In this document: positions 1,155 through 42,961 of the stretch, piece after piece
How positions within the stretch are numbered: position 1 is the first letter of the stretch
Layout: each line of letters starts with the position of its first letter
Assembly: GCA_903864935.1 (NCBI GenBank)
Contig: CAIPHT010000014.1
Span: 1 to 42,985 of the forward strand
From: Candidatus Vogelbacteria bacterium
GTDB lineage: Bacteria > Patescibacteriota > Minisyncoccia > Phycocordibacterales > XYD1-FULL-46-19
Direction of reading: 5' to 3'
DNA length: 42,985 bases
Made by a program: the position numbers and the translations under genes
The notes under the pieces: model-generated
Database searches by the model: none
The model's input: only the letters and a program-made list of their open reading frames with translations
What the model was told of the DNA's origin: nothing

Positions 1155-1193
1155 TTTAATTTTTGCTACTTTTGTGTTATCATCTAAGCACTT

Positions 1194-1964
1194 ATGGCTT
1201 TATCTTGGGCAAGGCAGAGACAATTAAATTATCTAACCACCGTTGTGGCTTTCTTGGCGCTTGTTGGTTTGGTTATTTATTTTGTTTATAAACCCGTCCC
1301 GACCTGCTTTGACGGACGACAAAATCAAGATGAAGAGGGGGTGGATTGTGGCGGAGTTTGCTCTTTGGCTTGCTCTAACCAGATTCAAGCCTTGAAGATT
1401 GATTGGGTTCGTCCACTTAAGGTGGAGGACGGCTGGTATGATCTTACCGCCCAGGTTGAGAATCTTAATCAGAATTTAGGCAATCGTTATCTGCCTTATA
1501 TCTTTTCTGTTTATGATACGGACAATGTTTTAATTACTAAGCGTGAGGGAGTAACTTTCGCTAACGCGGGAGAAAAATTTGTTATCTTCGAAGGACGCGT
1601 AATTACCAAAGATAGATCCGTTGGCAAAGTTTTTGTCGAATTTCCCACCTCCACCCCTTGGGAGAAGGCGGCACCGGTGGCCAAAGATATTTTTATCGAA
1701 CGTCGTGAATTTGCCAATGAGCCCAAACCAGTTCTTCATCTCTCGGTCGGCAATAGTAGCCTGAAGACGATAAGAGATATTTCTATTATCACGGTTCTCT
1801 CTGATATTAATAATAACGCTTTTGCCGCTAGTGAGACGAAGCTCGATGCGGTCGAACCGAATTCGCGCCAAGAAACTTATTTTACTTGGCCCGAACCCTT
1901 CTCTGGCGATCCTTCTTACGTTGAGTCTTATTGGCGGGTGAATAGTTTTAATCCTAATAAATAA
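1194..1964 (+). CDS. Membrane-anchored hypothetical protein with Cys-rich TCxDGxQNxxExGVDCGGxC motif
   Basis: N-terminal hydrophobic helix followed by PTCFDGRQNQDEEGVDCGGVC, a motif common in Parcubacteria surface proteins. Confidence 0.7.
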   Translation: MALSWARQRQLNYLTTVVAFLALVGLVIYFVYKPVPTCFDGRQNQDEEGVDCGGVCSLACSNQIQALKIDWVRPLKVEDGWYDLTAQVENLNQNLGNRYLPYIFSVYDTDNVLITKREGVTFANAGEKFVIFEGRVITKDRSVGKVFVEFPTSTPWEKAAPVAKDIFIERREFANEPKPVLHLSVGNSSLKTIRDISIITVLSDINNNAFAASETKLDAVEPNSRQETYFTWPEPFSGDPSYVESYWRVNSFNPNK

Positions 1965-1971
1965 TTTGGCC

Positions 1972-3114: not shown

Positions 3115-3120
3115 GCGCTC

Positions 3121-3283
3121 GGCCTTGCTTCAGTAAAACAACACAGAAAACCATTCCTGCGAACGGTTTTCTTACTCTCCGCGACGGCCATTTTGCCATC
3201 GTTCTTCGCTTTGCTCAGAACATAAATAATGGCAAAAGCCATGCTGGCCGTAGCTACGCGAGGTTGTTTTACTGAACAAGGCC
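3121..3283. repeat. ~163-nt multi-branched inverted-repeat element (REP/MITE-like or structured ncRNA)
   Basis: 3121-3127/3277-3283 and 3129-3142/3263-3276 pair perfectly. Inner stems are 3145-3152/3165-3172, 3184-3190/3245-3251, 3191-3199/3229-3237 and 3201-3205/3217-3221. Confidence 0.75.
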
Positions 3284-3437
3284 TCGCTTAGCTGCTGGCT
3301 ACAAAAATTTGCCTTATTCCTTACATTGTTCCTCCTAGGACCAAAGTGTAAAACATTAGAGACAAGAACCAACAAACATAAATTACTAAAATTGTTCCGA
3401 AAATAATTTTCAATATTTTTTCTAAGGTATTCATTTT

Positions 3438-4580
3438 TTAATTATTATATATTGTAATAGTTTTTTCGAGCATTTGCTTGAGGGAGAAATTTTGTTGGAC
3501 TTGGTGCTTAAGATTCATACCAGCTAGGTGGCGGTATTCTTTTTTCTTGATCATGAAGAGGAGGGACTTTTTAATCTCTTCGATATTGCCCTTTGGCACG
3601 AGGATACCTTGTTCGGCATCGGTGATTAGCTCGGGGATACCGCCAACTTCAGAGGCTATTACTGGCAAGCCGGCGAGGCCGGCTTCGAGAATAGAATAGG
3701 GGAGAGCTTCGGTGCGGGAAGTGAGGGTAAAAATGTCGAAGGCTTTGAGATAAGAGCGAGCATCTTCAACTCGGCCAACTAAGAAAATGCGATCATCCAT
3801 TCTCTTGTCTTTAATTAGTTTTTCGAGACGGGCCCGTTCTTCACCTTCACCGATAATAACCAAGTTTAAGGACCAACCAAGTGAATTGCCAAGTAGAGCT
3901 CGGACGGTCGCAGTGAAGGCTTCAATGAGATAATCCAAGCCTTTGTTTTTGTGGAGTTCGGAGATTGTGCCAATCCAAAAACGATCATTAGATTTTCCTA
4001 AAATTTCTTTTCTAGATATGGACCGTTCGAAGAGCTTTGCTGGACCAAGTCCATTATGAATAGTTGTAACTTTATCTCTTAAGCCAGACCAATTAACAAT
4101 TTCTTTTTTTAAGCTATCCGAGACGGTAATTATCTCATGACTTAAAATCATGGAGAGCCAGTGACTGAATTTAATTAAAATTTTTTGCCAGCTCGGCCGG
4201 TCCTCGTTGGTGGCTAGACCGTGCACTGTGAAGATAATTTTAGGAATACGGGCGAGTCTGCCGGCGAGGGCACCGAGGCCCCCAATCTTAGAACTATTAA
4301 GATGGATAACGTCGGGCCGTTCTTTAAGCAAGATGCTTAGAATATTCCAAAAAGATTGAAGTTCAGCGAGAATGTTGACGTCTCTTTGGAGTGAAGAGAT
4401 CTGTCGGGTTTTTATCCCGGCCGAGACCAGTTTTTCTCCCAGGATTTTTCCTTCACCAAAAATAACTGTGATATCAAAATCCGTTTTAGGTAGACTCGTA
4501 GCCAGATCATAGACATAACGTTGGGCTCCGCCGAAATTGCCCTTAGTGATAAAATAGAAAATCTTGGTTTTTGTAGCCAT
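3438..4580 (-). CDS. GT4 family glycosyltransferase
   Basis: GGAQRYV, IHLNSSKIG, FTVHG, IHNG, KGLDYLI and EALPYSILEAGLAGLPVIASEVGGIPE motifs. Confidence 0.92.
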   Translation of the reverse strand: MATKTKIFYFITKGNFGGAQRYVYDLATSLPKTDFDITVIFGEGKILGEKLVSAGIKTRQISSLQRDVNILAELQSFWNILSILLKERPDVIHLNSSKIGGLGALAGRLARIPKIIFTVHGLATNEDRPSWQKILIKFSHWLSMILSHEIITVSDSLKKEIVNWSGLRDKVTTIHNGLGPAKLFERSISRKEILGKSNDRFWIGTISELHKNKGLDYLIEAFTATVRALLGNSLGWSLNLVIIGEGEERARLEKLIKDKRMDDRIFLVGRVEDARSYLKAFDIFTLTSRTEALPYSILEAGLAGLPVIASEVGGIPELITDAEQGILVPKGNIEEIKKSLLFMIKKKEYRHLAGMNLKHQVQQNFSLKQMLEKTITIYNN

Positions 4581-4648
4581 AAAAAATACCCTCGCGGTAT
4601 GGGCTCAATATAGCATAATTTGACTTTTTGGTGTATGCTAGCCCTAAT

Positions 4649-5959
4649 ATGAGACTGACTTCTAAGAAGGAGACACTCGTTTTGTTGATAGGAGACATCA
4701 TCCTCTTCTATGTGGCAATTTGGCTGACCTTGGTTGTTCGTAATGCTGAATTGCCAGCCTGGAGCCTCTTCTCCCAATTTTTTGTGTCCTTTGCCTTCAT
4801 CTTTGCTTTATGGGTTTTTGTTTTTTATATTGCGGACCTTTATGGCAAACATACCTCCATCTTTCGTCGCAAGTTGTCTCGTGTCATCTTTAATGCTCAA
4901 TTGGTCAACTCCTTTGTGGCTGTTGTCTTCTTCTACTTCATCCCTTATTTTGGGGTGACCCCTAAGACCCTGCTTTTTGTTGACCTCTTCATTTCTTTTC
5001 TTTTGATTTTTATCTGGCGCAGTTTAATTGTGCCCAAACTATATTTGAATGTTTCGGAGAAAATTTATTTTGCTTGTTCGGGCCAAGAGGTAGATGAGAT
5101 TAAGGAGGAGATAAAGAATAACCCTTATTATAATATTAAGATTGCGAGCGAGATTGATTTCAAAAATATTAAAAATTCAGGCATTACCTCAATTGTTGTT
5201 GATCTTTATGATAAGGATATTGATTTGGCTTTAAAGAATTTTTACAGTTTAATTTTTTCTGGTATTCGCTTTATCCCTGTTACTAGTCTCTATGAAGAAC
5301 TTTTTGATCGAGAACCGGTCACCTCGCTTAAAGAACAATGGTTTTTGGAGAAGATTTCTAATCGGCCGAAGCCTATTTATGATGCCCTTAAGCGTCTGAT
5401 GGATATGGGGATTGCTAGCTTCCTCGGCCTTTTCTCCTTAATTTTCTATCCTTTTGTTTATGTCGCTATTAAATTAGAAGATGGGGGACCGATTTTTATC
5501 TCACAAGAAAGGATTGGTAAAGATAATAAAATCGTTAGGACTTATAAGTTTCGCTCGATGAGCAACAATGTTACTGACTTGAATTCAGAGAGCAATAAGA
5601 CAAATCGGATTACTCGGGTTGGAAATTTCTTACGCAAGACGAGGATCGATGAAGTGCCACAATTGTGGGCCGTGGTTAAGGGCGATATGTCTCTCATTGG
5701 CCCTCGACCAGAGTTGCCATCTGGTGTTGGCTATTACCAAGAAGAAATTCCTTATTATAATATTCGTCACATTATCAAACCAGGTCTCTCGGGTTGGGCT
5801 CAGATCTATGGCGAGCATCCGCACCACGGTCTTGATGTTGGCAGCACGCTAAACAAGTTTTCTTATGATCTTTACTATATTAAGAATCGTAGCTTCTGGC
5901 TGGATCTAAGTATTACCTTGAAGACGATAAAAATTTTATTAATGCGCAAAGGAGAATAA
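4649..5959 (+). CDS. Polyprenyl-phosphate glycosyl-1-phosphate transferase (WcaJ/WbaP-like initiating sugar transferase)
   Basis: N-terminal TM helices; C-terminal [51 protein letters not shown] and DLYYIKN. ATG 4649 preferred. Confidence 0.93.
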
Positions 5960-5960
5960 A

Positions 5961-6746
5961 ATGATTTTTGATGGCAAAAAACTAGCCGAGGAGATTAAGT
6001 CCGAACTCCGCTTGAAGTTAAAAGCTAAAAGCCAAAAGCTTAGTTTGGCCGTTGTCTGGGTAGGAGAAGATCCGGTGTCTGAACGTTATGTTGAGCGCAA
6101 GAAAAAATTTGGTTTGGATATCGGAGTCGAAGTTGTCGTTCATGAATATCCATCTGACGTCTTAGAAGAGGATTTGATAGAAGAAATAACAAAACTAAAT
6201 AATGACTCTAATGTCTCGGGAATTATTGTTCAGCTCCCACTTCCTGATGATATTGATCAACAAAAAATTCTTAATTTAATTTCACCTGATAAGGATGTTG
6301 ATGCTCTCAGCCAAGAGGCGAGAGTCTTGTCTCCAACGGTGGGAGCAATTAAAGAAATTTTAGAGCGGAATAATGTTGAACTTGCGGGTAAAAAAGCCGT
6401 GGTGCTTGGTAAAGGTAAGCTTGTGGGTAAACCCGTTGCCATTTGGCTCACAGGGGAAGGGGCGAGTGTCTCAATTATTGATTCAAAAACGGCTGATTCT
6501 GACAGCCTTTTAAAACAAGCCGATATTATTGTGAGTGGGGTGGGCAAGCCCGGCCTAATTACTCTAGACAAGATTAAAGATGGTGTTGTTTTGATTGACG
6601 CAGCCACATCTGAGCAGAATGGCAGTCTGAAGGGTGATGCTGATCCCGCCTGCGCCGACAAGTGTTCACTTTTCACGCCTGTCCCCGGTGGTGTGGGTCC
6701 GCTTACTGTTGTGATGCTTTTCAAAAATTTACTTGAACTTAATTAA
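5961..6746 (+). CDS. folD: Bifunctional methylenetetrahydrofolate dehydrogenase/cyclohydrolase
   Basis: GIIVQLPLP, KDVDA, GKGKLVGKP, ADIIVSGVGKP and TPVPGGVGPLTV motifs. Confidence 0.95.
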   Translation: MIFDGKKLAEEIKSELRLKLKAKSQKLSLAVVWVGEDPVSERYVERKKKFGLDIGVEVVVHEYPSDVLEEDLIEEITKLNNDSNVSGIIVQLPLPDDIDQQKILNLISPDKDVDALSQEARVLSPTVGAIKEILERNNVELAGKKAVVLGKGKLVGKPVAIWLTGEGASVSIIDSKTADSDSLLKQADIIVSGVGKPGLITLDKIKDGVVLIDAATSEQNGSLKGDADPACADKCSLFTPVPGGVGPLTVVMLFKNLLELN

Positions 6747-6761
6747 GCTTGGTGCTACTTT
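6733..6761 (+). promoter_or_regulatory. Sigma70-type promoter for orphan gene 6854
   Basis: TTGAAC-N17-TACTTT with extended TG; overlaps the end of folD. Confidence 0.5.
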
Positions 6762-6853
6762 TTAATTAGATTCTTTGTCATAGGCTGGGGGAGACCCTCG
6801 GCCTAAAACGTCGGAGGGGAGACCCCTCAATCGACAGAAAAGGAGATGTTCTC

Positions 6854-7510
6854 ATGAATAAAGGATATGACGTTCTTGCTTTGTGGAGGGCTCTTTCTGG
6901 GTGGGAATCGAGGCTCGTGACCACCGGTAAGTTTACCCTGGAAGATCGTCAGAGAGAGGCCGTCAACCTTCTTCGGATTGTTGTAGAGAGGGATATCCTT
7001 CCCTCCCTGAAGAATGACCCGCTTGTTCCTTTCTGGTCTGCCAACATCGTCAAAACGAAGAGGGAGTTTGTCGAGTTCGTTTCTCTCAAGGGCTTTATTC
7101 CCGAGGGCGAAGATTGGTCATCTTGGTTCAAGAGGGTTGAGGTTGATCCAATGAAGGAAACGGCGGATTTCCGGGGAATTTACTTCTTCTTGGACGACAA
7201 CGACGGCAACTTCGCTTGGGGTGTGACTTCCGGCGGAAAGGTTATCGTTTGCCGGGCTCACTTCATGTCCCACCCGACGGAGGATTTTTGCACCGTTATC
7301 AAGGATTGTGAAGTCCGAGGTGTTGGTTGGGATGAACTCGAAAAAGGGGATTTCCCTGTTGTCGAAATGATTGAGTGCCTTGACGGTTATCTCGAAGGTC
7401 TCGTTGCTCGTCGTGAGGAATTACTCAGAAAAGCGAAAGACCGGCGGCAACCGATCAAAGAGGCGTTAGACTTTTTCAGGCTGAAGGTTCAGGCCTCTGG
7501 ATTGCGGTGA
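6854..7510 (+). CDS. Orphan hypothetical protein (218 aa)
   Basis: Long ORF preceded by AAAAGGAG (6838-6845) and followed by a terminator; no family recognised. Confidence 0.7.
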   Translation: MNKGYDVLALWRALSGWESRLVTTGKFTLEDRQREAVNLLRIVVERDILPSLKNDPLVPFWSANIVKTKREFVEFVSLKGFIPEGEDWSSWFKRVEVDPMKETADFRGIYFFLDDNDGNFAWGVTSGGKVIVCRAHFMSHPTEDFCTVIKDCEVRGVGWDELEKGDFPVVEMIECLDGYLEGLVARREELLRKAKDRRQPIKEALDFFRLKVQASGLR

Positions 7511-7524
7511 TAAAATCTCTTCTC

Positions 7525-7552
7525 AAAAGCGGGCCCCACGTGGCCCGCTTTT
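7525..7552 (+). terminator. Intrinsic terminator, possibly bidirectional
   Basis: aaaagcgggcc-ccacgt-ggcccgctttt, an 11-bp stem. Confidence 0.8.
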
Positions 7553-7593
7553 CTTGTATATGAGAGATGGAAAAATTTTGATAAAATATAATT

Positions 7594-8067
7594 ATGACTT
7601 TTTATGAATACTTAATTTATTTCTGTGCTGTAATTTTGCCTTGGGTCATGGGCGGGGGATTGATTGTTTATTTATTTTTCACCAAGAAAAAAATTAGCAC
7701 TCTTCGTTTGGTTGGCCTGTCATTTTTTAGCGCGCTCCTGGCTTGGTTTCTCGCGAGTTTGGTTAAGTATAATATTCCGAGCCCCCGACCATTTGAAGTC
7801 TACGCTAATCTTAAACCACTTTTTACAACGGCTCATGGCGACGCTTTTCCTTCTGGCCATGCGACTTTCTTGGGAGCGTTCGCGGTTGGGGTTTTCTTGC
7901 AAAGAAAGAAACTTGGGATAATTTTTATCGTTGGGGCTGGTCTTGTCGCTATTGCCCGGGTCTTAGCTAATGTCCACTGGCCAGCCGATGTAATTGCTGG
8001 GCTCCTGTTTGGGGCCTTAGTAGCGGTTGTTGTGGGTGGGGTTTATCACAAAGTCTATTCGAAATAA
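7594..8067 (+). CDS. PAP2-family phosphatase (candidate undecaprenyl-pyrophosphate phosphatase)
   Basis: K-x6-RP (KYNIPSPRP), FPSGHA and ARVLANVHWPAD motifs in a membrane protein. Confidence 0.88.
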   Translation: MTFYEYLIYFCAVILPWVMGGGLIVYLFFTKKKISTLRLVGLSFFSALLAWFLASLVKYNIPSPRPFEVYANLKPLFTTAHGDAFPSGHATFLGAFAVGVFLQRKKLGIIFIVGAGLVAIARVLANVHWPADVIAGLLFGALVAVVVGGVYHKVYSK

Positions 8068-8075
8068 CTACCCCC

Positions 8076-8112
8076 CCCCGCCACACCTCGGGCTCACTTG
8101 AGGTCTGGCGGG
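8076..8112. repeat. 37-nt palindromic REP-like element, copy 1
   Basis: 36/37 identical to 10399-10435; CCCGCC...GGCGGG arms. Confidence 0.85.
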
Positions 8113-8127
8113 GGAAAGGGGGTGGGT

Positions 8128-8155
8128 TTGATTTTCCCCCTTATTTTGCTAGAAT
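8128..8155 (+). promoter_or_regulatory. secD promoter
   Basis: TTGATT-N16-TAGAAT with TGn extension, 8 nt before ATG. Confidence 0.65.
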
Positions 8156-8163
8156 AGCCCCAT

Positions 8164-9474
8164 ATGACTAAGACACGTTTTTGGGCCATTATCCTGCTTT
8201 TAGTGGGTATTTTGATTGGCTATTTTAATTATTATTCAGAAGTTAATCCCCAGTGGAGCTTCTATCGTCCGTTTAAGTTGGGTCTCGATTTATCAGGAGG
8301 AAGTCGCCTCACCTATGAGGCTGATGTCTCTAAGTTGAACCCGGCCGATGTCTCTGATGCCATGTCATCCCTCCGCGAGGTGATTGATCGTCGTGTTAAT
8401 GCTTTTGGTGTTTCTGAGGCTATTGTCCAGACCGAGAGCTCGGCTCTATCTGGTACTGTCCACAATCGTTTGATTGTTGAATTACCAGGGGTCACTGATG
8501 TTAAGCAGGCTGCCAATATGATTTCTGAGACGCCACAGCTTGAGTTTAAGGTTGAAGGCGCTACCTCGACGGCGAACCTTGATGCCTCAAGCACTCCATG
8601 GTTGGCGACTGGTTTGACCGGACGTTATCTTAAGAAGTCCCAAGTTTCTTTCAGCCAGAATTCTTTGTCTCCTTCGATCTCTATTGAGTTCAATAGTGAT
8701 GGAGCCAAACTCTTTGATCAAATTACTAAAGCTAGCGTTGGCAAACGTGTAGCAATCTTGCTCGATAATCAGATTATCTCGGCGCCGGTTGTGCGGGAAG
8801 AAATTCGCGATGGCAAGGCGGAGATCAGCGGTCAATTTACTGTTACCGAAGCCAAGGACCTCGTTCGCAATTTAAACCTTGGAGCTTTACCTGTCCCAAT
8901 TAAGCTAGCCTCCACTCAGGTGGTCGGCGCAACCTTGGGTACCGAAGCGGCCAAGAAGGGGGTCGAAGCTGGCATCATTGGCCTTCTTCTTGTCGCCATC
9001 TTCATGTTGCTTTGGTATCGTTTGCCCGGTCTGGTCTCGATTGTCGCCCTATCTATCTATGTGATGATAATGTTGGCCATTTTCAAATTAATGCCTGTGA
9101 CTCTAACGGCCGCTGGTATGGCTGGTTTCATCCTCTCCATTGGTATTGCTGTCGATGCGAATGTTCTTATCTTCGAGCGTTTCAAAGAAGAGTTGGCTAA
9201 GGGTAAGTCTCTCCACGCGGCTGTTACTGAAGGTTTCTCTCGCGCTTGGCTCTCTATTCGTGACTCCAATCTCTCCAGTATTATCTCGTCCATTATCCTC
9301 TTCTGGTTTGGGACAAGCATGATTAAGGGTTTCGCCTTAACTTTAGCTCTGGGTATCATTGTTAGTATGTTTACCGCTGTGGTGGTCACTCGAACTTTCC
9401 TTCTAGCGCTTGGCTTCCGGCAGTCGAACCGGCTAACCCGCTTCTTATTCGGTAATGGTTTCTTCAAAAATTAA
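8164..9474 (+). CDS. secD: Protein translocase subunit SecD
   Basis: LGLDLSGG, RRVNAFGVSE, GALPVP, VGATLG, DANVLIFERFKEEL and IRDSN motifs. Confidence 0.97.
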   Translation: MTKTRFWAIILLLVGILIGYFNYYSEVNPQWSFYRPFKLGLDLSGGSRLTYEADVSKLNPADVSDAMSSLREVIDRRVNAFGVSEAIVQTESSALSGTVHNRLIVELPGVTDVKQAANMISETPQLEFKVEGATSTANLDASSTPWLATGLTGRYLKKSQVSFSQNSLSPSISIEFNSDGAKLFDQITKASVGKRVAILLDNQIISAPVVREEIRDGKAEISGQFTVTEAKDLVRNLNLGALPVPIKLASTQVVGATLGTEAAKKGVEAGIIGLLLVAIFMLLWYRLPGLVSIVALSIYVMIMLAIFKLMPVTLTAAGMAGFILSIGIAVDANVLIFERFKEELAKGKSLHAAVTEGFSRAWLSIRDSNLSSIISSIILFWFGTSMIKGFALTLALGIIVSMFTAVVVTRTFLLALGFRQSNRLTRFLFGNGFFKN

Positions 9475-9478
9475 ATAT

Positions 9479-10393: not shown

Positions 10394-10398
10394 AAAAT

Positions 10399-10435
10399 CC
10401 CCGCCAGACCTCGGGCTCACTTGAGGTCTGGCGGG
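10399..10435. repeat. 37-nt palindromic REP-like element, copy 2
   Basis: cccgccagacctc...gaggtctggcggg, a perfect 13-bp stem immediately after the secF stop. Confidence 0.85.
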
Positions 10436-10509: not shown

Positions 10510-10537
10510 TTGACGGGCTTATTTTTTCCTGTATAAT
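10510..10537 (+). promoter_or_regulatory. 16S rRNA promoter
   Basis: TTGACG-N16-TATAAT about 210 nt upstream of the 16S. Confidence 0.8.
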
Positions 10538-10745: not shown

Positions 10746-12239
<1,494 letters not shown>

Positions 12240-12383
12240 TTGAACGGTCTTGTCGCAAGATAAGACAATTGGCGATTTCTCTCCTCAAGAGAGAAGCAGG
12301 TGATGATTCTATTTTCACCAATTGAATTCTTTTCGAAGGAATTCAAAGAACAATGAATCTGAGTTCTATCTCATTAATCTAGA

Positions 12384-12509: not shown

Positions 12510-12537
12510 TTGACAAAGGCTGTGGTTATGCTATAAT
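12510..12537 (+). promoter_or_regulatory. Consensus sigma70 promoter for orphan gene 12609
   Basis: TTGACA-N16-TATAAT with TGn extension; preceded by the hairpin ccccgt...acgggg (12481-12509). Confidence 0.85.
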
Positions 12538-12608
12538 AGAGGATGGAAGGGTATTAAATGTTCTTAAAACCAGGCTCGCTTAGCGGGCCAAGCAGAAGGA
12601 GAAGAGAG

Positions 12609-13106: not shown

Positions 13107-13164
13107 GCGCGTGTAGCTCAGGCTTGCCCGCCTTAGGCGGGTGAAGTTAGGCGCGTCACTGATA
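13107..13164 (+). pseudogene. Degenerate 5' half of tRNA-Ile with a palindromic insertion in the D-loop
   Basis: First 16 nt are identical to the tRNA, followed by the insert cttgcccgccttaggcgggtgaa, then GTTAG-GCGCGTCACTGATA, ending at position 37. Confidence 0.85.
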
Positions 13165-13226
13165 TAATCAGTATACTGTCGGTTCGCTCGTTGAAAATCA
13201 AAAGATAGGCCCTTAGTGCTTTTGGT

Positions 13227-13510: not shown

Positions 13511-13521
13511 AAGGAGGTGAT
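13511..13521 (+). promoter_or_regulatory. Full-length Shine-Dalgarno sequence
   Basis: AAGGAGGTGAT is the exact complement of the canonical anti-SD AUCACCUCCUU; ATG at 13525. Confidence 0.8.
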
Positions 13522-13524
13522 AAG

Positions 13525-14001
13525 ATGAAGATTGCCATGATTAGCAAAAACAACTTTCTCCCTGGTCGGGGGGAGGGTTGGCCCAGAATTGTTAATGGTC
13601 ACGAAGTTTACCTTATTCAGGGTCGCCCTGAAACTCCCGAGAGTCTTCGTCGAGACATGAGAAGGGCCGCTGATTATCCTCGAGTCAGAAGTGTCGACTC
13701 GAGACTTGAGGCACGTAGAGACTGGGAATCCCTTAGTCGACTCCTTCCCACACTGGATAGAGTGATTGTCTATGTTGGTACCGATGGGTCTGATGAGAAC
13801 ATCGACCTTGCTGCGAAGCATTGCGGTACGAGGGTCCCTGTGACCTTCGTCTTCTGTGATTGTAATCTTGACCTCAAGAAACAGCTTCTTGCGAGTAACG
13901 GATTTGACCGGGAGAAGTTTGTCCTATGTCTTTGCGGCGGGAAGGAGAAGATGGAGGAGATTTACGAAAGGTTCATAGAGACAGGGGAACTCCCTGTCTA
14001 A
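13525..14001 (+). CDS. Orphan alpha/beta protein with two CxC motifs (158 aa)
   Basis: Own promoter, SD and terminator; FVFCDCN and VLCLCGG motifs. Confidence 0.75.
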   Translation: MKIAMISKNNFLPGRGEGWPRIVNGHEVYLIQGRPETPESLRRDMRRAADYPRVRSVDSRLEARRDWESLSRLLPTLDRVIVYVGTDGSDENIDLAAKHCGTRVPVTFVFCDCNLDLKKQLLASNGFDREKFVLCLCGGKEKMEEIYERFIETGELPV

Positions 14002-14004
14002 CAG

Positions 14005-14044
14005 CAGCCCCTGGCGGATACCCATCCGCCAGGGGCTGGTTTTT
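14005..14044 (+). terminator. Strong intrinsic terminator
   Basis: Perfect 15-bp stem cagcccctggcggat-accc-atccgccaggggctg followed by GTTTTT. Confidence 0.9.
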
Positions 14045-14077
14045 GTCTCTTCGGGGACTTATGCTAGAATGCTTTAT

Positions 14078-17000
14078 ATGGAAATCAAATCTAGATTTGA
14101 ATTTTTTAGACGAGATAATATTACTTATCTTGATAGTGCCGCGACAACTCAAGTTCCTGATCAAGTGATTCGATCAGTGGAACAAGTTTTGCAATACCGA
14201 GGCAACCCAAGTCGTAGCGCTCATTTAGTTTCTCTCCGCAATGAAGAGTTGCTAGCTGAGGCCAGAGCTAATATTGCCAAATTTATTGGGGCTGAAGCTG
14301 AAGAGATCGTTTTCTCTGGTAATGCTACTGGGGCCTTAAATCTAGCTGTTGATTCTATTGCTGATCTGATTAAGAAAGATGACGAGATAATTATCTCCGT
14401 GGCTGAACATAATTCTAATATGTTGCCTTATCTTAAGTTGGTAAAAAGAGGGGCGAATATTCGAATTGTCGGGATCAAAGATGGGGTAGTGAGTCTTGAT
14501 GAAATTAAGAAGACCCTAAACGACAAAACAAAAATTGTCGCCATTGGCCATTGTTCCAATGTTTTGGGCAATATTAATGATGTCGAAGAAATTGGGAAGA
14601 TTGTCAAAGATCATAACAAAGACATTTTTTATTTTATTGATGGGACCCAAGCCGTGGCGCATCTCCCCGTTGACGTGAAGAAAATTCAAGTTGATTTCTA
14701 TGCTTTCTCCAGTCACAAGATGTATGGTCCCGATGGTGTGGGTGTTTTGTTTATTAAAAAAGATATTCATCATTTATTAACTCCTACTCAAGTTGGCGGG
14801 GGGACAGTGAAGAACGTGGCTGTTACTTATGGTCAAGAAAAGGATATTATTTCTCCTGAGTATCATCAATCTCTAATTACGTTAGAAGGGGGGACACCGA
14901 ACACTTCAAATATTATTGGTCTTTCAAGAGCGGTTTATTTTATCCGTTCTCTTGGGTTAGAAAATATCAGGAAGCATGAATTAGAGTTATTAGAATATCT
15001 TATTGAGGGATTAAAGAAGATAGAGGAAGTTATCGTTTTTGGCCCTGAAGATTTTACTAAAAAAATTGGCCTAGCTTCTTTTGGCTTAAAAGACCATTCC
15101 GTAAAAGAGCTCGGTGATTATCTTGGCCGTCAAAAGATTTGTATTCGTTATGGTTCCCATTGCGCTTTTCCTTTGGCCGATAAATTGGGCCAAGAGAGTC
15201 TGCGTATTAGTTTTGGGGCTTATTCTGATATTGAGGACATTGATCGAATATTGGGCGAAATAAAACTCTTTTTTGATAAGAAAAAAGGTCTGATAAAAAA
15301 TCCTAATTTAGAAATTCTTAAGAATAAAATTTATTACAAAAATACTTTTATCACTCAATCGATAGGGTCTATTTTGGATAAATTAAGATCTGCTATATAT
15401 AATCCAGCTGAGACAGAAGTTGTTGTTATGGGTGGTCATTTCTTGGCTATCCCGGACATGCAAGATAATAAATTTTGGCCCAGTATCAAGCCGATGCTAC
15501 CAGAGAGGCTTCATGGTTTACTTGAAGAGTTCGGGATGACTTCTTTCCCCCTATTTTCCTGGGAGATGGCTTGCCAGACTGTGTCGAAACTTAAAGAACA
15601 AGGCGTTAGGGCCAAGCTTCTTATTGTGGCTAACGATACCACTGGGATTAACGAATTGAGACTTTCTAGCGCTAATAAAAATTCTCGGACAGCCGAATCT
15701 TATCGAGATGAATTACTGGCTCTGTTTGCTGGGGATGACGGAATACCCAAAGAATATGTCGAGATCTTAAAGAAATACAAATTAAGCAAAAAGGACCTTA
15801 TTAAAAGTGGTAAGGACTGCTTTATGCGGGAGACTATCTTACGCGCTAATTTCAAGAAATTTATCAGCGGAAATAAGAAATTCTTTGATGGGGTTATAAA
15901 TTATTCGGCCGAGGAAGGGGAGAACATTGATGTCGCTATTAATATTCTTGATAACCAGCAAATAAAGACTTGTAGCTTCCAAACCTTTAATTCTAAGACG
16001 GGAGGAAGATTTTGTATCGCTGAAGTCGCCGAATTGATGGCGGAGCTATTTGGTAAGGCCCCAGATGTTAACTTCGATTTCTTAAAAGAAAAAGTTAAGG
16101 AACCAAAAATTGAAGGCAAACATAAAATTTTTGTCATGTATTCTCCGGCCATGTGTGATAACGCTATCACAAGAGGAGGGGAACTCTACACGAAGGTGTT
16201 TTTGCAAGAAAAAGGTGTGGGTTCCTTTAAATTCTTTAATATACCATTAGGCCCTAATGCTGAGAGAGATCTTGCGATAGGCACTGAGATGAAATATATT
16301 TCAGATAAGGATTCGCTTGAGGTCTTGAATGTTGAGACTGAGCCAAGTTTTGCTGATCTGTGGAAGATTACTGAATATAATCTTCTCTATAATAGTAGCG
16401 CTTATGCTGATGAGGTAGAAAGTGTTTTTGAGAAAATTGGTATCAATAAAAATTCTAAGATATTGGACACTTGTGTCGGCCCTGGCTTTTTCTCGACCGA
16501 ATTACTGCAGCGAGGCTATAATTTAAGTACGGCTGATATTAGCGAAGAGACAATTAAACCATTTTATAAAGGTCTAGAGGAACTTGGGATTGAACATAAA
16601 GTTACCAAGTCTGCTTGGCTAGATTTGCCGAAGAATTATACTAAAGAATCTTTTGATATCCTCTTTAATCGTGGAAACTCGTTTATTTATGCCGCTGGCG
16701 GCTGGAATGAGGAACTTCCTGTAAACAAGGAGAAGTCGTTAGAAATTTTCTCGCAAACCTTGAAGATTTATTATGACTTACTAAAACCAGGAGCTTATCT
16801 CTATATTGATAAGTTTAGAGACTCAGAAATCCCCGACAAAAAAGTTGCGGCCAGACTAGAGATTACGGATTCTAAAGAAGAAAAGGATGTCATGTTTTTA
16901 GTAGAAAGACGCCCTGAAGAAAATACACGTTTTGCCCAATTGTCCTTGCGTGATACCTCTGATAATAAGGAGAAAATGATGTTGACGGGGTTGGTCTATG

Positions 17001-17949: not shown

Positions 17950-17978
17950 TTGGCCTCTTTCTTGTCTTGTGCTAAAAT
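17950..17978 (+). promoter_or_regulatory. murD promoter (leaderless geometry)
   Basis: TTGGCC-N17-TAAAAT with TGn extension, 6 nt before ATG. Confidence 0.65.
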
Positions 17979-17984
17979 GCCTTT

Positions 17985-21476: not shown

Positions 21477-21486
21477 TTACCCCTAT

Positions 21487-21732
21487 ATGAGACACATTAT
21501 TTGGCGCAATCGAGCCAGTGCGATTCTAGGTGTTTTTGTCATGCTGATCCCTTTTACTGGTTTCCCAGAGATTATCAGGGATTCTCTCGTCGTCTTATCG
21601 GGGTTCTTAATTGCCCTTTTTGGTTTTTATCATAGCTCGTCTAATTATGCCCTTGTCGAGGTTGAGGAGGCACACCACCACGCCAAAAAAGGAGACTCTA
21701 GAACCAATGAAGAAACATCATCTCTCGGTTAG
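21487..21732 (+). CDS. Small two-TM membrane protein
   Basis: Two hydrophobic segments with LIPFTGFP; ATG 9 nt after TGCTATAAT. Confidence 0.65.
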   Translation: MRHIIWRNRASAILGVFVMLIPFTGFPEIIRDSLVVLSGFLIALFGFYHSSSNYALVEVEEAHHHAKKGDSRTNEETSSLG

Positions 21733-22915: not shown

Positions 22916-22943
22916 TTCAATTAACTTATAATAGAAAGAGTTT

Positions 22944-37322: not shown

Positions 37323-37958
37323 TTATTTTTTTGTCGCAATTACTCTAATAAACTTTTGGTTGGCTTGGTTGGCCTTGTTTGATGGAGCAAACCCTGATTT
37401 TTCTTCGGCCATAACTATCTCGAAGCCGATTGATTTTAATTTTGCAACAAGCTTGTCAATATCTATAAAGCGACGATAATGACCCTCGTAAATATAAGAA
37501 TCTGTTTCTCCTTTTACTGGTTCACCTAATTTATAGAATTCATTCTTTTTACCCCTTGCTTCTATTAATATTTTGCCACCCTCTTTTAAATTTTTATAAG
37601 CCCACTTAATTACCTCATCCTCTTCTTTTTCTGAGATTGAGTGTAGTGTGAAACGGGAATAAACATGGTCAAATGTTTCTAATTTTTTTAGTTTTGTAAA
37701 ATCCGCAGAAATAAAATTTAAGGTTGAGAGATCGTTTTTTTCTATTAAAATTTTAATTTCTTCTTCACACTGGTCTATGGCGACAACATTTATCCCGTGA
37801 CTGGCGAAAAAAATACTATCACGGCCGTTTCCGCAACCAAGTTCAATAAGGGAGTGCTCACTTCTTAGATGGTTGTCTAGCACAAACTGAGCAAAAGGCG
37901 ATGACTCCAGCGGTGCCCCTTGGTGTTTGTAGTATTTTTCCCAATATTCTTTATCCAT
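37323..37958 (-). CDS. Class I SAM-dependent methyltransferase
   Basis: YWEKYY, LIELGCGNGRDS, YSRFTLHSI and GHYRRF motifs. Confidence 0.88.
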   Translation of the reverse strand: MDKEYWEKYYKHQGAPLESSPFAQFVLDNHLRSEHSLIELGCGNGRDSIFFASHGINVVAIDQCEEEIKILIEKNDLSTLNFISADFTKLKKLETFDHVYSRFTLHSISEKEEDEVIKWAYKNLKEGGKILIEARGKKNEFYKLGEPVKGETDSYIYEGHYRRFIDIDKLVAKLKSIGFEIVMAEEKSGFAPSNKANQANQKFIRVIATKK

Positions 37959-37987
37959 GTTTATATATTATTATCAGGTAATGGTAA

Positions 37988-39295: not shown

Positions 39296-39541
39296 TTACC
39301 AATTAAGAATTTTATCGGCGACCTTCTTCTTTGTTTTTAGGTATTTGTCGATTGCTTTTTCTTCAAGCTCTGGTGAGACTAAGCGGAGGATTTCTTTTCC
39401 CATAATGCGATATTGTCCGCCAATTTTGTTGGCCCGGATGGCTCCATTTTTGAGTAAGCGCTTAATTGTGCTTTCACTAATGCGGAGCACCTTTTGGGTC
39501 TCAGTGGTTGTATAGACGGCGAGAGGTTTAATTTCTTCCAT
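39296..39541 (-). CDS. Small helix-turn-helix DNA-binding protein (excisionase/HTH_17-like)
   Basis: YTTTETQKVLRISESTIKRLLKNGAIRANKIGGQYRI motif. Confidence 0.85.
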   Translation of the reverse strand: MEEIKPLAVYTTTETQKVLRISESTIKRLLKNGAIRANKIGGQYRIMGKEILRLVSPELEEKAIDKYLKTKKKVADKILNW

Positions 39542-39549
39542 TAACCGCT

Positions 39550-39588
39550 ATTCTAGCTGATAGGTCAGAAGGTGTCAACGGGTGTCAA
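39550..39588 (-). promoter_or_regulatory. Promoter and candidate operator of the HTH/wzx glycan operon
   Basis: Minus strand reads TTGACA-N17-TAGAAT-N8-ATG. There is a second TTGACA 10 nt upstream and CTGA-N4-TCAG in the spacer. Confidence 0.8.
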
Positions 39589-39593: not shown

Positions 39594-40796
39594 TTAGTCG
39601 CGAATTATCTCCCTCATAATCTTCACCCTAATCGATTCAGGCAAGGGCTCTTTGGTGATGCAGATGAGATAACCTCCGCCCCCAGCGCCGGAGAGCTTGT
39701 AGCCAAGGATATTACCTTTGCTCTCTTTTATCTTGTCTTTAATAAATTGCTCGATTTCTTTATTTGTCATTAAGGGAAACATTGCCACTTGGGCGCGGAA
39801 GCTTGCGGTTACTCCTTCGGCCAATAGGTTTATATCCTTGTTTTTTATTGCCTCCCAAACTTTTTGACTAGCCTCGCTTAATTTCTTTGTGCCAGATTTT
39901 GTAACTCTTGTTTTTTCTAGGACGCGGAAGTTTTGGCCTCGTGGGGTAAGGGGAAGAAGAAAAATGTGGTCACTTAAGAATTTTATTGTTGAAGGGGTGT
40001 TGATTGTCTCTATTTTCTCTGGCCAGTATTTACCATTATATAGAGAGTTGGTAATGCCCGGGATAACAATACCGATTGAATCTTGGGAACCAGCCACCTC
40101 AACTGTGCCCGGTGGATTCTCGTGAGCAAAGAGAATTTTGGCCAATTTAAGAGGATCGCCTTTATCAATATGATTACCCCAAAGGTCGAGGGCCTTTTGT
40201 CTGGTGCTTGTGGCCATGCCGCTGCGCAAATTAAAAGTAATTGTTCTTTCTATATTAAGCGATTTGTCTTTAAACTTAAGAGGTACCCCAAAGATAGGGA
40301 AGGTGATGACCGAGCCTGGGTAATTTTTGGAAACATTCGGTTGATCAAGCCAACCCCCAGCTAGATCAATGCGATAGGGGATCTTAATTATCTTCTTAAG
40401 GCCTGTTGTTGATCGGGGGGTTAAGCCTTCGGCTGGGGTTCTACTTAAAACAACATACTTAATACCCAGTTTCTCGACGAACTTTTTCTTTTTGGGAGAA
40501 TCGCCATCGGTGTTTACGATAAAATAATTAGGCTTTATTTTTCTGATTGATTTTTTTAAATCGAGAACACCCATTTCTTGAGAGATAAAGGCATCTTTGA
40601 CATAGCGAATGGCTTTAACCATAAAAAGTCTTTCTCCTTCTGTATTTGTTGGTCTCCGGTCTTTTAATTGAGAAATGTTTTTATCTGAGCCAATAGACAC
40701 ATAAAGATCTCCATAAGCCGAAGCCTCTTTAAAAAATTGCACATGTCCCGAGTGGAGCAGGTCAAAACAGCCACTGATCATCACTTTTTTTGCCAT
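39594..40796 (-). CDS. Cytidylyl/adenylyltransferase-GHMP kinase fusion
   Basis: N-terminal SGCFDLLHSGH (HIGH) and ERLFMV; C-terminal PYRIDLAGGWLD, GMATS, GSQD and KLSGAGGGGY. ATG 40796 preferred because 40811 overlaps the -10 box. Confidence 0.85.
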   Translation of the reverse strand: MAKKVMISGCFDLLHSGHVQFFKEASAYGDLYVSIGSDKNISQLKDRRPTNTEGERLFMVKAIRYVKDAFISQEMGVLDLKKSIRKIKPNYFIVNTDGDSPKKKKFVEKLGIKYVVLSRTPAEGLTPRSTTGLKKIIKIPYRIDLAGGWLDQPNVSKNYPGSVITFPIFGVPLKFKDKSLNIERTITFNLRSGMATSTRQKALDLWGNHIDKGDPLKLAKILFAHENPPGTVEVAGSQDSIGIVIPGITNSLYNGKYWPEKIETINTPSTIKFLSDHIFLLPLTPRGQNFRVLEKTRVTKSGTKKLSEASQKVWEAIKNKDINLLAEGVTASFRAQVAMFPLMTNKEIEQFIKDKIKESKGNILGYKLSGAGGGGYLICITKEPLPESIRVKIMREIIRD

Positions 40797-40876
40797 AAAC
40801 GGTTTGAGCATAACACGATTTTGTCGTCTTTACCACCTTTTTATTCCTTGAAAATCTGTGTTATATTAGAGCCATT

Positions 40877-42961
40877 ATGACAACTAACAAATGGCTCAAG
40901 TATTTTATATACGCCGGTATTTTTGTAATACCGTTTATTCCGTGGATTGTAGCGAGTTCCTCGTACTTTCCCTTTATTACTGGTAAAGGCTTTGCCTTTA
41001 GACTTATTGTCGAATTAATTTTTGCGGCCTGGGCAGTTCTTGCCCTGCGCGATAATTCGGCTCGACCCGAGAAGTCTTGGGTTCTTTATTCGGTCCTAAT
41101 ATTGGGGGCTGTTGATATCTTGGCCACTATCTTTGGCCTTAATCCCTACCGCTCCTTCTGGTCTAATTATGAGCGTATGGATGGTTTAGTCACAATCTTG
41201 CATCTTGTGGCTTACTTTATTGTTCTCATTTCCGTTCTTAAGGATAAGATGAAGTGGTTCTACTTAGCTAATGTTGCTCTTATCGCCAATGTCTATATTG
41301 CGCTTTATGGTTTCTTACAACTGGCCGGCAAGGCTCAGATTCACCAGAGTGCCGCCCGTCTTGATGCTTCACTTGGTAACTCGGCTTATCTCGCGGTCTA
41401 CGTTCTCTTCATGATCTTCATCGCTGGTTATTTGTTGTTCTTGACTTGGTCTAAGAATAAGGCTCTCGCCATTTTCTATATCGTGATGATGGTGCTCGAT
41501 ATTGTTGTCTTGTATTATACCGCAACTCGTGGAGCCATCTTGGGTCTTATTGGGGGAGTCTTTTTGACTTGTCTGCTTCTCGCCATCTTCAAATCAGGGG
41601 TGACGAGAAAGATTGCGGGAGCGGTTGTTATCTTGGCAATTGTTTTGGTTGCCGGATTCTACTCAATTAGAAATACTGACTTTGTAAAAAGTAGCCAGGT
41701 TCTCTCACGTTTTACCGATATCTCCCTTTCGGGTGGTACGGCTGGTTCACGTCTAATGATTTGGAAGATGAGTTTACAGGGCTTTAAGGAGCACCCCGTG
41801 CTTGGTTGGGGACCAGAAAATTACTCGATGGTCTTTAGCAAATATTATGACCCTGGTATGTATGGCCAGGAGCCGTGGTTTGATCGCTCTCACAATATTT
41901 TCTTTGATTGGTTAATTAACGCCGGTCTCTTGGGTTTGCTCGCTTATCTCTCTGTTTATATTAGTGCGCTCTACTATCTCTGGTTTGGTCAAAAGAAAAA
42001 AGAAGAAGAAAAAGTTTTTACGAGTTCACTCGTTGCTAAGAGTTTGCTGACTGGTTTATTCGCGGCTTATTTCTTCCACAATATTTTTGTCTTCGATAAT
42101 CTTATTAGTTATATTCTTTTCTTCTCAGTGATTGCGTTTATTCATTTTCTTTCAATCAGTAAAGATTATGAAAAAGAAAAAACTCTAGCGGTAAAAAAAG
42201 ATTATCAGGTTAAGAAAAAAAATAATGACGAGATTGATTTGCTTGCGACAGGAGGAGCAATTGTTATTGTCATTGTTTTGCTTGGTTGTCTTTATTATGT
42301 TAATTACAAACCATATCAAGTCTCAGTTAATTTAATTCGGGCCATCGCGACGGGTACAACCCAGGCCGATAATAGCCTAAAAATTTTCCAACAAGTTTTT
42401 GCGGCTGATACTTTTGGTTCGGGTGAGGCACGCGAGCAACTTATCTCCATGACAATGGGTGTGCTTAATGATTCTAAAATTTCGAACGAGACCAAGACCG
42501 CCTTCGTTAACTTAACGGGCGAGCAAATTAAGGCTCATCAAATACATTTTGCTGATGATGCCAGGTCTAACCTCCTCTTTGGCTCTTATCTCTCGGCTCT
42601 TGGTCAGACTGACGCTGGCCTCGTTTTCCTTAAGAAAGCGGAGCAAGAATCGCCAAAAAAGCAACAAATTCTCTTTGAATTGGGGGGCGCGTATATTCGG
42701 AAGCAAGACGCGGCCAATGCCGTTAGAGTTATCAAAGAGGCTTATGATCTCGATACTAATTATGTCGAAGCGAGAAAAATGTACGCCATTGTTTCTCTTA
42801 TGACGGGCCAAACTAAATTGGCGATGGAACTCTTGGCTCCAATAAAAAATTCTCCTGATTATTATAATGATGATCGGTTTGTAAATTTGTATCAGCAAAT
42901 GGGTGATAAAAAAGATTTGCAAGAAATAAATTTATTGCGCGCGAGTTCAACAAAAAAATAA
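40877..42961 (+). CDS. O-antigen ligase / O-oligosaccharyltransferase-like (Wzy_C) membrane protein with a TPR-like C-terminus
   Basis: SLGNSAYLA, TATRGA, SRLMIW, HPVLGWGPENY and DRSHNIFFDWL motifs; helical-repeat C-terminus. Confidence 0.88.
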   Translation: MTTNKWLKYFIYAGIFVIPFIPWIVASSSYFPFITGKGFAFRLIVELIFAAWAVLALRDNSARPEKSWVLYSVLILGAVDILATIFGLNPYRSFWSNYERMDGLVTILHLVAYFIVLISVLKDKMKWFYLANVALIANVYIALYGFLQLAGKAQIHQSAARLDASLGNSAYLAVYVLFMIFIAGYLLFLTWSKNKALAIFYIVMMVLDIVVLYYTATRGAILGLIGGVFLTCLLLAIFKSGVTRKIAGAVVILAIVLVAGFYSIRNTDFVKSSQVLSRFTDISLSGGTAGSRLMIWKMSLQGFKEHPVLGWGPENYSMVFSKYYDPGMYGQEPWFDRSHNIFFDWLINAGLLGLLAYLSVYISALYYLWFGQKKKEEEKVFTSSLVAKSLLTGLFAAYFFHNIFVFDNLISYILFFSVIAFIHFLSISKDYEKEKTLAVKKDYQVKKKNNDEIDLLATGGAIVIVIVLLGCLYYVNYKPYQVSVNLIRAIATGTTQADNSLKIFQQVFAADTFGSGEAREQLISMTMGVLNDSKISNETKTAFVNLTGEQIKAHQIHFADDARSNLLFGSYLSALGQTDAGLVFLKKAEQESPKKQQILFELGGAYIRKQDAANAVRVIKEAYDLDTNYVEARKMYAIVSLMTGQTKLAMELLAPIKNSPDYYNDDRFVNLYQQMGDKKDLQEINLLRASSTKK

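Follow-up and report, generated by a model that had tools for sequence, protein, structure and literature searches.

Start codons directly downstream of sigma-70-type -10 boxes in a Candidatus Vogelbacteria contig whose 16S rRNA gene lacks the anti-Shine-Dalgarno sequence

Leaderless mRNAs have been verified by mapping of transcription start sites (TSSs) in Mycobacterium, Streptomyces, and Deinococcus deserti, and mammalian mitochondria, whose small-subunit rRNA lacks an anti-Shine-Dalgarno (anti-SD) sequence, translate mRNAs that start at the AUG or a few nucleotides (nt) from it. GeneMarkS-2 places Actinobacteria and Deinococcus-Thermus in a "group C," in which a Pribnow box is found approximately 10 nt before the first gene begins (PMC6028130). 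Loss of the anti-SD, in turn, has been reported for about half of the Parcubacteria (Tsurumaki et al. 2022, PMC9297842), and an "SD-scarce" class includes Parcubacteria such as Campbellbacteria and Wolfebacteria (PMC10783764). Targeted term searches of these two papers returned no mention of promoter position or of a leaderless route, and, within the reach of the same kind of search, papers reporting the loss leave initiation in anti-SD-less Parcubacteria unexplained. Here, we analyze a 42,985-nt stretch of Candidatus Vogelbacteria DNA (CAIPHT010000014.1, probably the entire contig; hereafter, the window), in which the ATGs of genes at the head of transcription units typically lie 6 to 11 nt downstream of -10 boxes of the sigma-70 type. 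These promoter-proximal ATGs would provide a concrete answer to the question of how anti-SD-less Parcubacteria start translation. The advance concerns lineage and context rather than mechanism; in other phyla, leaderless mRNAs deduced from -10 boxes are well known. A targeted literature search, limited to its search terms, linked leaderless initiation to neither Parcubacteria nor other Patescibacteria lineages, and, although leaderless regimes are published, as is the loss of the anti-SD in Parcubacteria, no coupling of the two was found in the literature searched.

The window resembles group C in having a Pribnow box near operon-first starts, no Shine-Dalgarno (SD) sequence there, and a preference for AUG. 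However, in group C the anti-SD is still part of the ribosome and SD sites serve genes that are internal or leadered, whereas the window has no anti-SD and shows no SD enrichment before internal genes, so that the dual model does not apply; this is the main difference between the two. Additionally, the promoters in the window are often of the extended -10 type (TGn), with longer spacings of up to 11 nt. With the anti-SD-less Parcubacteria, the window shares a 16S rRNA gene without CCUCC and a host that falls within the Parcubacteria/Paceibacteria. The combination of a missing anti-SD and a near-terminal AUG is also found in mammalian mitochondria, a working analogy that implies no shared descent of the trait. 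There, however, mRNAs are processed from polycistronic transcripts and delivered to the mitoribosome by dedicated proteins, whereas the window has a promoter for each unit. By this analogy, the regime in the window might be functionally closer to that of mammalian mitochondria than to group C. Finally, the Bacteroidota (Flavobacterium johnsoniae, PMC6847099) share the genome-wide lack of SD use, but they retain the anti-SD and have leadered mRNAs with A-rich, Kozak-like start contexts; neither a retained, unused anti-SD nor this leadered layout was found in the window, where the anti-SD has disappeared and the promoter lies right next to the ATG.

Start codons and -10 boxes in the window

An earlier note on this DNA had named 10 starts with a -10 box 6 to 11 nt before the ATG and had read them as a pervasive leaderless or near-leaderless regime. 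A -10-like box at such a spacing was indeed seen at all 10 (Table 1), none of them has a GGAG, GAGG, or AGGA core between positions -20 and -4, and 9 of the 10 have a T at -1. The box before 22944 is, as claimed, a TATAAT without TG, 11 nt from the ATG. At the minus-strand start 39541, for which a TGnTAnnnT box had been proposed, the 8-nt spacing stands but the TG does not (AGcTAGAAT), although a perfect TTGACA is present 17 bp upstream. In addition to these starts, three members were identified: 4649, 13537, and, on the minus strand, 37958. The first is the weakest of the whole set, since it has neither a TG nor a good -35 hexamer, and the promoter assignment for the last is uncertain because a stronger box, TGGTATAAT, is situated 45 nt upstream.

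Table 1. Promoter-proximal starts and associated features of the window. Spacers are counted from the last T of the -10 hexamer to the ATG.
Feature	Coordinates (strand)	Elements	Product or remark
ATG 1194	1175..1196 (+)	extended -10 TGTTATCAT (TGtTATCAT), 10-nt spacer	256-aa protein, no Pfam
ATG 4580	4578..4615 (-)	extended -10 TGCTATATT (4615-4607), then 26-nt spacer (4606-4581)	GT4 glycosyltransferase
ATG 4649	4634..4651 (+)	-10-like TATGCT, 9-nt spacer	Bac_transf sugar transferase (Pfam)
ATG 6854	6733..6856 (+)	TTGAAC-17-TACTTT, TG present, then 92-nt structured leader	AGGAG in leader
ATG 7594	7579..7596 (+)	extended -10 TGATAAAAT (TGaTAAAAT), 6-nt spacer	PAP2 phosphatase
ATG 8164	8128..8166 (+)	TTGATT-16-TAGAAT with TG (TGcTAGAAT), 8-nt spacer	secD
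16S rRNA promoter	10510..10537 (+)	TTGACG-16-TATAAT	11/12 consensus matches
16S rRNA gene	10746..12246 (+)	tail after helix 45, GGAUUUAUUUCAAAUUGAAC	without CCUCC anti-SD
ORF 12558	12510..12560 (+)	perfect consensus TTGACA-16-TGcTATAAT (12510-12537)	in spacer after 16S gene
tRNA-Ile promoter	13160..13168 (+)	extended -10 TGATATAAT	approximately 58 nt before tRNA-Ile (13227)
ATG 13537	13518..13539 (+)	extended -10 TGATAAGAT (TGaTAAGAT), 10-nt spacer	154-aa open reading frame
ATG 14078	14043..14080 (+)	TTGTCT-16-TAGAAT with TG (TGcTAGAAT), 7-nt spacer	cysteine desulfurase-methyltransferase fusion
ATG 17985	17950..17987 (+)	TTGGCC-17-TAAAAT with TG (TGcTAAAAT), 6-nt spacer	MurD-like ligase
ATG 21487	21449..21489 (+)	TTCCCA-17-TATAAT with TG (TGcTATAAT), 9-nt spacer	81-aa open reading frame, two hydrophobic stretches
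ATG 22944	22927..22946 (+)	TATAAT without TG, 11-nt spacer	TraG/VirD4-like ATPase
ATG 37958	37956..37970 (-)	TAATAT, 6-nt spacer	methyltransferase
ATG 39541	39539..39578 (-)	TTGACA-17-TAGAAT, no TG (aGcTAGAAT), 8-nt spacer	81-aa helix-turn-helix protein
ATG 40796	40794..40815 (-)	extended -10 TGTTATGCT (TGtTATGCT), 10-nt spacer	cytidylyltransferase-kinase
ATG 40877	40859..40879 (+)	extended -10 TGTTATATT (TGtTATATT), 9-nt spacer	O-antigen-ligase-like protein

Loose matches are common in the window, with 116 sites for TGnTAnnnT and 1,745 for TAnnnT, and it is therefore their position, rather than their presence, that is informative. Among open reading frames (ORFs) of at least 80 amino acids (aa), the distance from TGnTAnnnT to the ATG fell 10 times between 6 and 10 nt, compared to 11 times over the whole range of 12 to 40 nt (29 bins). 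Of the 16 unit-first genes, 9 have a TGnTAnnnT box 6 to 11 nt upstream and 13 a TAnnnT box; in 5,000 rounds of composition-preserving shuffling of the 45 nt upstream of each of these genes, means of 0.2 and 3.06 were obtained, and the observed counts were never reached (0/5,000). By contrast, operon-internal genes are at chance level (0/22 for TGnTAnnnT and 4/22 for TAnnnT, versus 0.2 and 3.9 expected). If only 5'-most ATGs are considered, 5 of 41 (TGnTAnnnT) and 11 of 41 (TAnnnT) remain. The comparison of motif and shuffled sequence, which the earlier note had put forward as a check, was strongly significant in the window and likewise across 1.09 Mb from independent relatives. The abundance of loose motifs might still invite the explanation that TA-rich hexamers simply arise by chance in AT-rich intergenic DNA, but the shuffles, the distance-specific peak in both data sets, and the conservation of orthologous sites (see below) refute it, and we give it next to no credence. 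As for the word "pervasive," it fits the unit-first genes (13/16) but not the approximately 22 operon-internal genes, where promoter and SD are both missing.

Many of the boxes come with a TG at -15/-14 and, 16 to 17 bp away, a -35-like hexamer, and the promoter of minus-strand gene 39541 matches the consensus at 11 of 12 positions. They are situated at the heads of units, in some cases directly following a strong intrinsic terminator: the terminator at 7525-7552 precedes the promoter at 7560-7587, and the one at 14005-14038, which comes after the stop codon of the 13537 ORF, precedes the promoter at 14043-14070. Promoters of the same type are found upstream of the untranslated 16S rRNA and tRNA-Ile genes. 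The boxes are thus, as far as sequence can tell, true sigma-70 promoters. Since they occupy the position of a ribosome-binding site and the new tail of the 16S rRNA is rich in A and U (AUUUAUUUCAAA), making short A/U pairings conceivable, we also considered that TAnnnT might act at the RNA level, through pairing with the altered tail or through S1. The TG and the TTGACA-like hexamers are, however, promoter-specific features; the TGnTAnnnT box is missing before all 22 internal genes, which need ribosomes as well, and this argues against a ribosome-binding role; the box does precede rRNA and tRNA genes that are never translated; and the hexamer variants TAGAAT, TATGCT, and TATCAT show no consistent complementarity to the tail. 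We therefore regard a role as ribosome-binding signal as highly improbable.

The tail of the 16S rRNA gene lacks CCUCC, in agreement with the earlier claim of a ribosome without anti-SD. An SD-like 5-mer stands before 4 of the 36 genes in the window, against 7% of control ATGs, and there is thus no enrichment. A CUCCUC at approximately 12281-12286 was considered as a displaced anti-SD and rejected, with nothing comparable found in locus L010 or other relatives.

In the ORFs of five of the starts in Table 1 (14078, 40796, 21487, 13537, and 4649), an ATG or other start codon occurs further toward the 5' end. For 14078 and minus-strand 40796, the in-frame ATG further upstream (14069 and 40811, respectively) falls within the -10 box itself, and the choice of 40796 places the beginning of the CTP_transf_like domain at residue 7. 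The promoter of 40796, at 40815, is divergent from that of 40877. For 13537, the alternative ATG at 13525 sits within the -10 box and has a GGAGG before it, leaving the choice between the two ambiguous. The start of the longest ORF is wrong for at least three genes (4628 instead of 4649, 14069 instead of 14078, and 40811 instead of 40796), and probably for a fourth (13525, possibly instead of 13537). In these genomes, start codon prediction might be better served by a promoter-distance model than by an SD model.

Relatives with and without the anti-SD

The arrangement is not confined to the window. In 26 Patescibacteria loci collected via SecD (326 kb), the box-to-ATG distances of 6, 7, 8, 9, 10, and 11 nt were found 15, 15, 12, 7, 10, and 5 times, respectively, against a background of approximately 2.3 per bin, with no peak for GTG or TTG. 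A larger set of 143 anti-SD-less loci (1.09 Mb, comprising the SecD loci and the group A loci described below) yielded TGnTAnnnT-to-ATG counts of 64, 39, 27, 22, 22, and 7 at the same distances, with a mode of 6 nt and a background of approximately 6.5 per bin. Here, GTG showed almost no peak (7, 7, 3, 2, and 6) and TTG none, so that AUG is specifically preferred at promoter-proximal starts. The motif-guided choice of five starts in the window does not affect these tests on other genomes.

For the comparison with anti-SD-retaining relatives, two groups with near-equal GC content were assembled from three scans for the helix-45 sequence of the lineage; both are small, unweighted samples around rRNA genes, and some records in both carry implausible taxon labels from automated submissions. 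Group A contains 117 loci whose 16S gene lacks CCUCC and has a tail of the same type as that in the window; where named, the labels are Parcubacteria, Paceibacterota, Nomura-, Kaiser-, and Zambryskibacteria, among others. Group B contains 122 loci whose 16S gene ends in GGAUCACCUCC, with labels such as Magasanik-, Falkow-, Uhr-, Kerfeld-, Doudna-, and Moranbacteria. Many public records of metagenome-assembled genomes labelled Gammaproteobacteria, Udaeobacter, Spiroplasmataceae, or Saccharibacteria (L037, L053, L058, L062, L088, L094, and others) were also observed; their Patescibacteria-type helix 45 and tails suggest mislabelled or contaminated bins.

Among ORFs of at least 100 aa, taken from their 5'-most ATG, an extended -10 box 6 to 10 nt upstream was found in 85 of 777 in group A (10.9%) and in 36 of 788 in group B (4.6%; odds ratio, 2.57; p = 2.7e-6), with profiles over these five distances of 42, 16, 10, 12, and 5 in group A and 18, 6, 7, 3, and 2 in group B. 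SD-like 5-mers 4 to 9 nt before the start go in the opposite direction (51 in group A versus 137 in group B). The comparison that the earlier note had called for thus came out in its favor: in Patescibacteria that retain the anti-SD, the arrangement is approximately 2.5 times rarer and an SD-like peak is seen instead. Nevertheless, the tie to anti-SD loss is a quantitative shift and not a switch, as anti-SD-retaining relatives also have some such genes. This graded contrast suggests a path along which SD use declines as leaderless units build up. For the loose TAnnnT motif, the contrast is significant only at approximately 120 loci per group; with the smaller set from the first 16S scan, it was not significant for the explicitly Patescibacteria-labelled subset. 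SD usage was likewise evaluated on first-ATG ORFs, a count over all in-frame ATG, GTG, and TTG codons having been dropped because it was noisy even for the outgroup. In a positive control, loci recovered by the same scan and dominated by Actinomycetota, for which leaderless mRNAs have been established by experiment, TANNNT peaked at 6 to 9 nt (7, 6, 10, and 5), which validates the method and the spacing and adds to the likeness to group C. Loci from Nitrospirae and Phycisphaerae showed no peak, but these make an unfair contrast because they are GC-rich and contain few motifs, and GC-matched, anti-SD-retaining Patescibacteria were used instead.

The group comparison also bears on the possibility that the short leaders are real but a mere by-product of genome compaction, with initiation proceeding on ordinary 30S subunits that need neither an SD nor a 5'-terminal AUG, as on the unstructured, A/U-rich starts of Bacteroidota and chloroplasts. 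Intergenic regions are indeed short, promoters frequently run into the end of the preceding gene (the promoter of 21487, at 21449-21477, is located within the 3' end of a Mur ligase gene), the window contains leadered genes without an SD (4580 and 12558), and spacings in secD orthologues reach 11 to 16 nt. Against this, group B is equally compact and of similar GC content but has such genes approximately 2.5-fold less frequently; the mode is sharp and lies at exactly 6 nt, where the A of the ATG would be at +1; the peak is specific to ATG, as expected for recognition of a 5'-terminal AUG; and a 6-nt spacing is maintained even as the spacer itself drifts in sequence. On balance, we consider compaction unlikely to account for the pattern by itself.

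This last point emerges from two loci, L006 and L002, that are syntenic with positions 1187 to 10681 of the window at approximately 75% nucleotide identity. For the PAP2 gene, the 6-nt spacing is kept in all three genomes (TGtTATAAT-6-GTG in L006 and TGgTAAAAT-6-GTG in L002), even though the spacer has diverged in sequence and the start codon has been swapped between ATG and GTG. The complete arrangement upstream of secD (TTGATT-16-TGcTAGAAT-8-ATG) is kept in four genomes (the window, L001, L002, and L006), together with the N terminus, and 13 of the 20 distant secD orthologues listed have a clear -10-like box 6 to 16 nt before the conserved ATG. Orthologues of gene 1194 have TGnTAnnnT at 10 nt (L006) and 11 nt (L002), compared to 10 nt in the window. 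Similarly, the ATG and the TGTATGCTA block of the Bac_transf gene, for which alignment of orthologues marks ATG 4649, not TTG 4628, as the true start, are kept in L006 and L002, with spacers of 10 nt.

If the promoters were genuine but the start codons lay further downstream, or the TSSs further upstream, the leaders would be of ordinary length. The start codons are, after all, predicted, five of them were chosen among alternatives, and an RNA piece from a relative begins upstream of a predicted promoter (see below). However, the N termini of the secD, 1194, and Bac_transf products are conserved in orthologues from the proposed ATG onward; Pfam domains are reached within a few residues of the proposed starts; the independent gene caller of a public collection picked the same start for 1194; and an ATG-specific positional peak would be absent if these ATGs were irrelevant. 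Ordinary leaders are therefore very unlikely, in our estimate.

In the anti-SD-less 16S genes (positions 12227-12246 of the window, L010, and the 117 group A loci, L041-L238), a conserved element, GGA-WYAWTTCAAnTTGAA, occupies the site of the anti-SD. A Watson-Crick inverted repeat of at least 5 bp was present in 52 of 110 distinct tails, compared to 12.3 in shuffled tails (a count reached in 0 of 500 shuffles), and the variants are compensatory (TTCAA/TTGAA, TCCAA/TTGGA, CTCAA/TTGAG, and GTCAA/TTGAC). The hairpin was scored for each sequence separately; RNAalifold, run on ungapped tails, returned helix 45 alone because the tails differ in length.

Predicted leaders and modes of initiation

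According to TSS maps for 49 bacteria, transcription begins 7 bp downstream of the -10 box, and the TSS falls on a pyrimidine-purine-pyrimidine triplet in 93% or 79% of cases for triplets centered at 7 or 8 bp, respectively (PMC12641261). In the promoter-proximal arrangement, the base at -1 is a pyrimidine in 61 of 74 promoters, and "tATg" is itself such a triplet. At spacings of 6 to 7 nt, or to 8 nt by a wider reading that draws on the polymerase's preference for such triplets, the A of the ATG would consequently be the +1 base; from spacings of 8 or 9 to 11 nt we infer leaders of about 1 to 5 nt.

We propose the following layout: a terminator is followed by a sigma-70 promoter, often of the extended -10 type, and this in turn by the ATG, with 6 to 11 bp from hexamer to start. 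The resulting unit-first mRNAs would most likely be translated through 5'-end-dependent, AUG-specific initiation of the leaderless type, given a 16S rRNA without anti-SD and no enrichment of SD-like motifs upstream. Operon-internal genes, having neither promoter nor SD, would most likely be reached through termination-reinitiation coupling; they mostly overlap the upstream stop codon or are at most 10 nt away from it, with ATGA overlaps at 27065, 28931, 29698, and 34055. Promoter-abutting ATGs, combined with near-leaderless, leaderless-type initiation in anti-SD-less Paceibacteria, are the best explanation of the data and, in our judgment, a probable one. The leaderless regime proposed in the earlier note is supported from both sides, by the shuffles and by the anti-SD-retaining relatives.

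Several observations weigh against this explanation. First, spacings in the window range from 6 to 11 nt with a median of 9, longer than the 6-nt mode of the relatives, so that "near-leaderless" is the fairer description for many of its genes; in Escherichia coli, leaders of 1 to 5 nt weaken leaderless initiation. Second, a T at -1 is common at starts of the candidate phyla radiation (CPR) in general and is for that reason only weak evidence of a TSS. Third, the five starts discussed above were selected partly by motif or orthologues. Fourth, strong SD-like motifs (AAGGAGG or GGAGG at canonical distance) remain in 32 of the 777 group A ORFs (approximately 4%), about twice the background (approximately 2% above it), spread over 25 of 117 loci (e.g., L137, L157, L174, L193, and L208); in the window, such motifs occur at 5961, 6854, 13525, and 21707. 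No 16S partner for these motifs was evident in the anti-SD-less genomes; they may be relics or belong to recently acquired genes. Fifth, RNA runs contained no match to window positions 14001 to 24000, and runs sharing 16S words covered conserved 16S fragments only, with no mRNA coverage at 85% likeness and nothing on the 16S 3' end. A related anti-SD-less locus, L181, was represented in sludge metatranscriptomes by sparse contig pieces at 2- to 6-fold coverage, one of which starts upstream of a predicted promoter; the 16S 3' end was not covered there either.

Finally, three unit-first genes have longer spacers, 26 nt for minus-strand 4580, 92 nt for 6854, and 20 nt for ORF 12558, corresponding to inferred leaders of 13 to 85 nt. 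Leadered, SD-independent initiation must therefore also exist, which likewise speaks against a purely near-leaderless regime. Between promoter and ATG of the GT4 gene (4581-4606, minus strand), a 20-nt hairpin with a T-run, CAUACCGCGAGGGUAUUUUUU, was observed, resembling a terminator immediately before the start codon. L002 shares this element with the window, whereas L006 lacks it and has the same promoter 6 nt from the ATG; it may represent an attenuator or a small inserted element. The leader of 6854 (6747-6853) contains two tandem hairpins with GGGGAGACCCC cores (fold z = -3.35) and a closing helix in which a conserved AGAUUCUUUGU pairs with AAGGAGA just before the ATG. No Rfam family matched this leader, which is possibly an undescribed cis-regulatory RNA. 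As gene 6854, the clearest of these exceptions, is absent from L006, it is an insertion; at this position, L002 has a gene whose leader is related. The third case, ORF 12558, encodes 110 aa (12558-12890) without a Pfam match. Its promoter is followed at 5 nt by another ATG, at 12543, which opens a 4-codon ORF (MEGY*) whose stop codon directly abuts ATG 12558. Terminators before the promoter (12432-12461) and after the ORF (12947-12986) delimit a self-contained unit at 12432-12986.

More tentatively, and with rather less than even confidence, we speculate that the anti-SD-less Paceibacteria, as an entire class of bacteria with a free-living or episymbiotic lifestyle, have dropped SD/anti-SD pairing altogether. 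Unit-first genes would then be translated from 5'-terminal or near-terminal AUGs that arise through promoters 6 to 11 bp upstream, and downstream genes through reinitiation, and the freed 16S 3' tail would have given way to a mini-hairpin (GGA-WYAWUUCAAnUUGAA) that is conserved, covarying, and functional in its own right. If true, this would constitute a bacterial counterpart of mitochondrial initiation.

Gene content and further observations

The window carries cell envelope genes (encoding FtsW, glycosyltransferases, and MurD/MurC-like ligases), secDF, a 16S rRNA gene (10746-12239), and a tRNA-Ile gene, as well as a row of 16 glycan synthesis genes headed by minus-strand ATG 39541. It contains no ribosomal protein genes; in the anti-SD-less Parcubacteria, loss of the ribosomal protein uL1 co-occurs with that of the anti-SD (Tsurumaki et al. 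2022). The closest relatives of its SecD (81 to 85% identity) are encoded in metagenome-assembled genomes of Paceibacteria/Parcubacteria, and loci sharing its helix-45 type are labelled, where records name a lineage, Paceibacterota, Vogel-, Zambryski-, Nomura-, Kaiser-, or Taylorbacteria; both place the host in the Parcubacteria/Paceibacteria. DNA of the window is present in lake water metagenomes. Contigs identical to it were short except for one of 20 to 50 kb, so that the window is probably the entire contig.

No 23S gene follows the 16S gene (10746-14000), which sits immediately downstream of secDF; the rRNA genes are therefore unlinked. The secDF-16S synteny is kept in many Paceibacteria relatives (L005, L006, L009, L010, L024, L031, and L032). 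The 81-aa ORF at 21487-21732 overlaps, in another frame, the start of a DUF4015 glycosyl hydrolase gene (21611-22915); the hydrolase probably starts at ATG 21707 (MKKHHLSVS...) rather than at TTG 21611, the start of the longest ORF. Lastly, the 3' half of the tRNA-Ile(GAU) gene recurs approximately 45 nt beyond the gene, forming a 37-nt direct repeat (13265-13303 and 13347-13385), which ARAGORN misreads as a 90-nt "tRNA-Stop(tta)" and for which Rfam gives no second tRNA. The repeat looks like the scar of an element formerly integrated in the tRNA gene.

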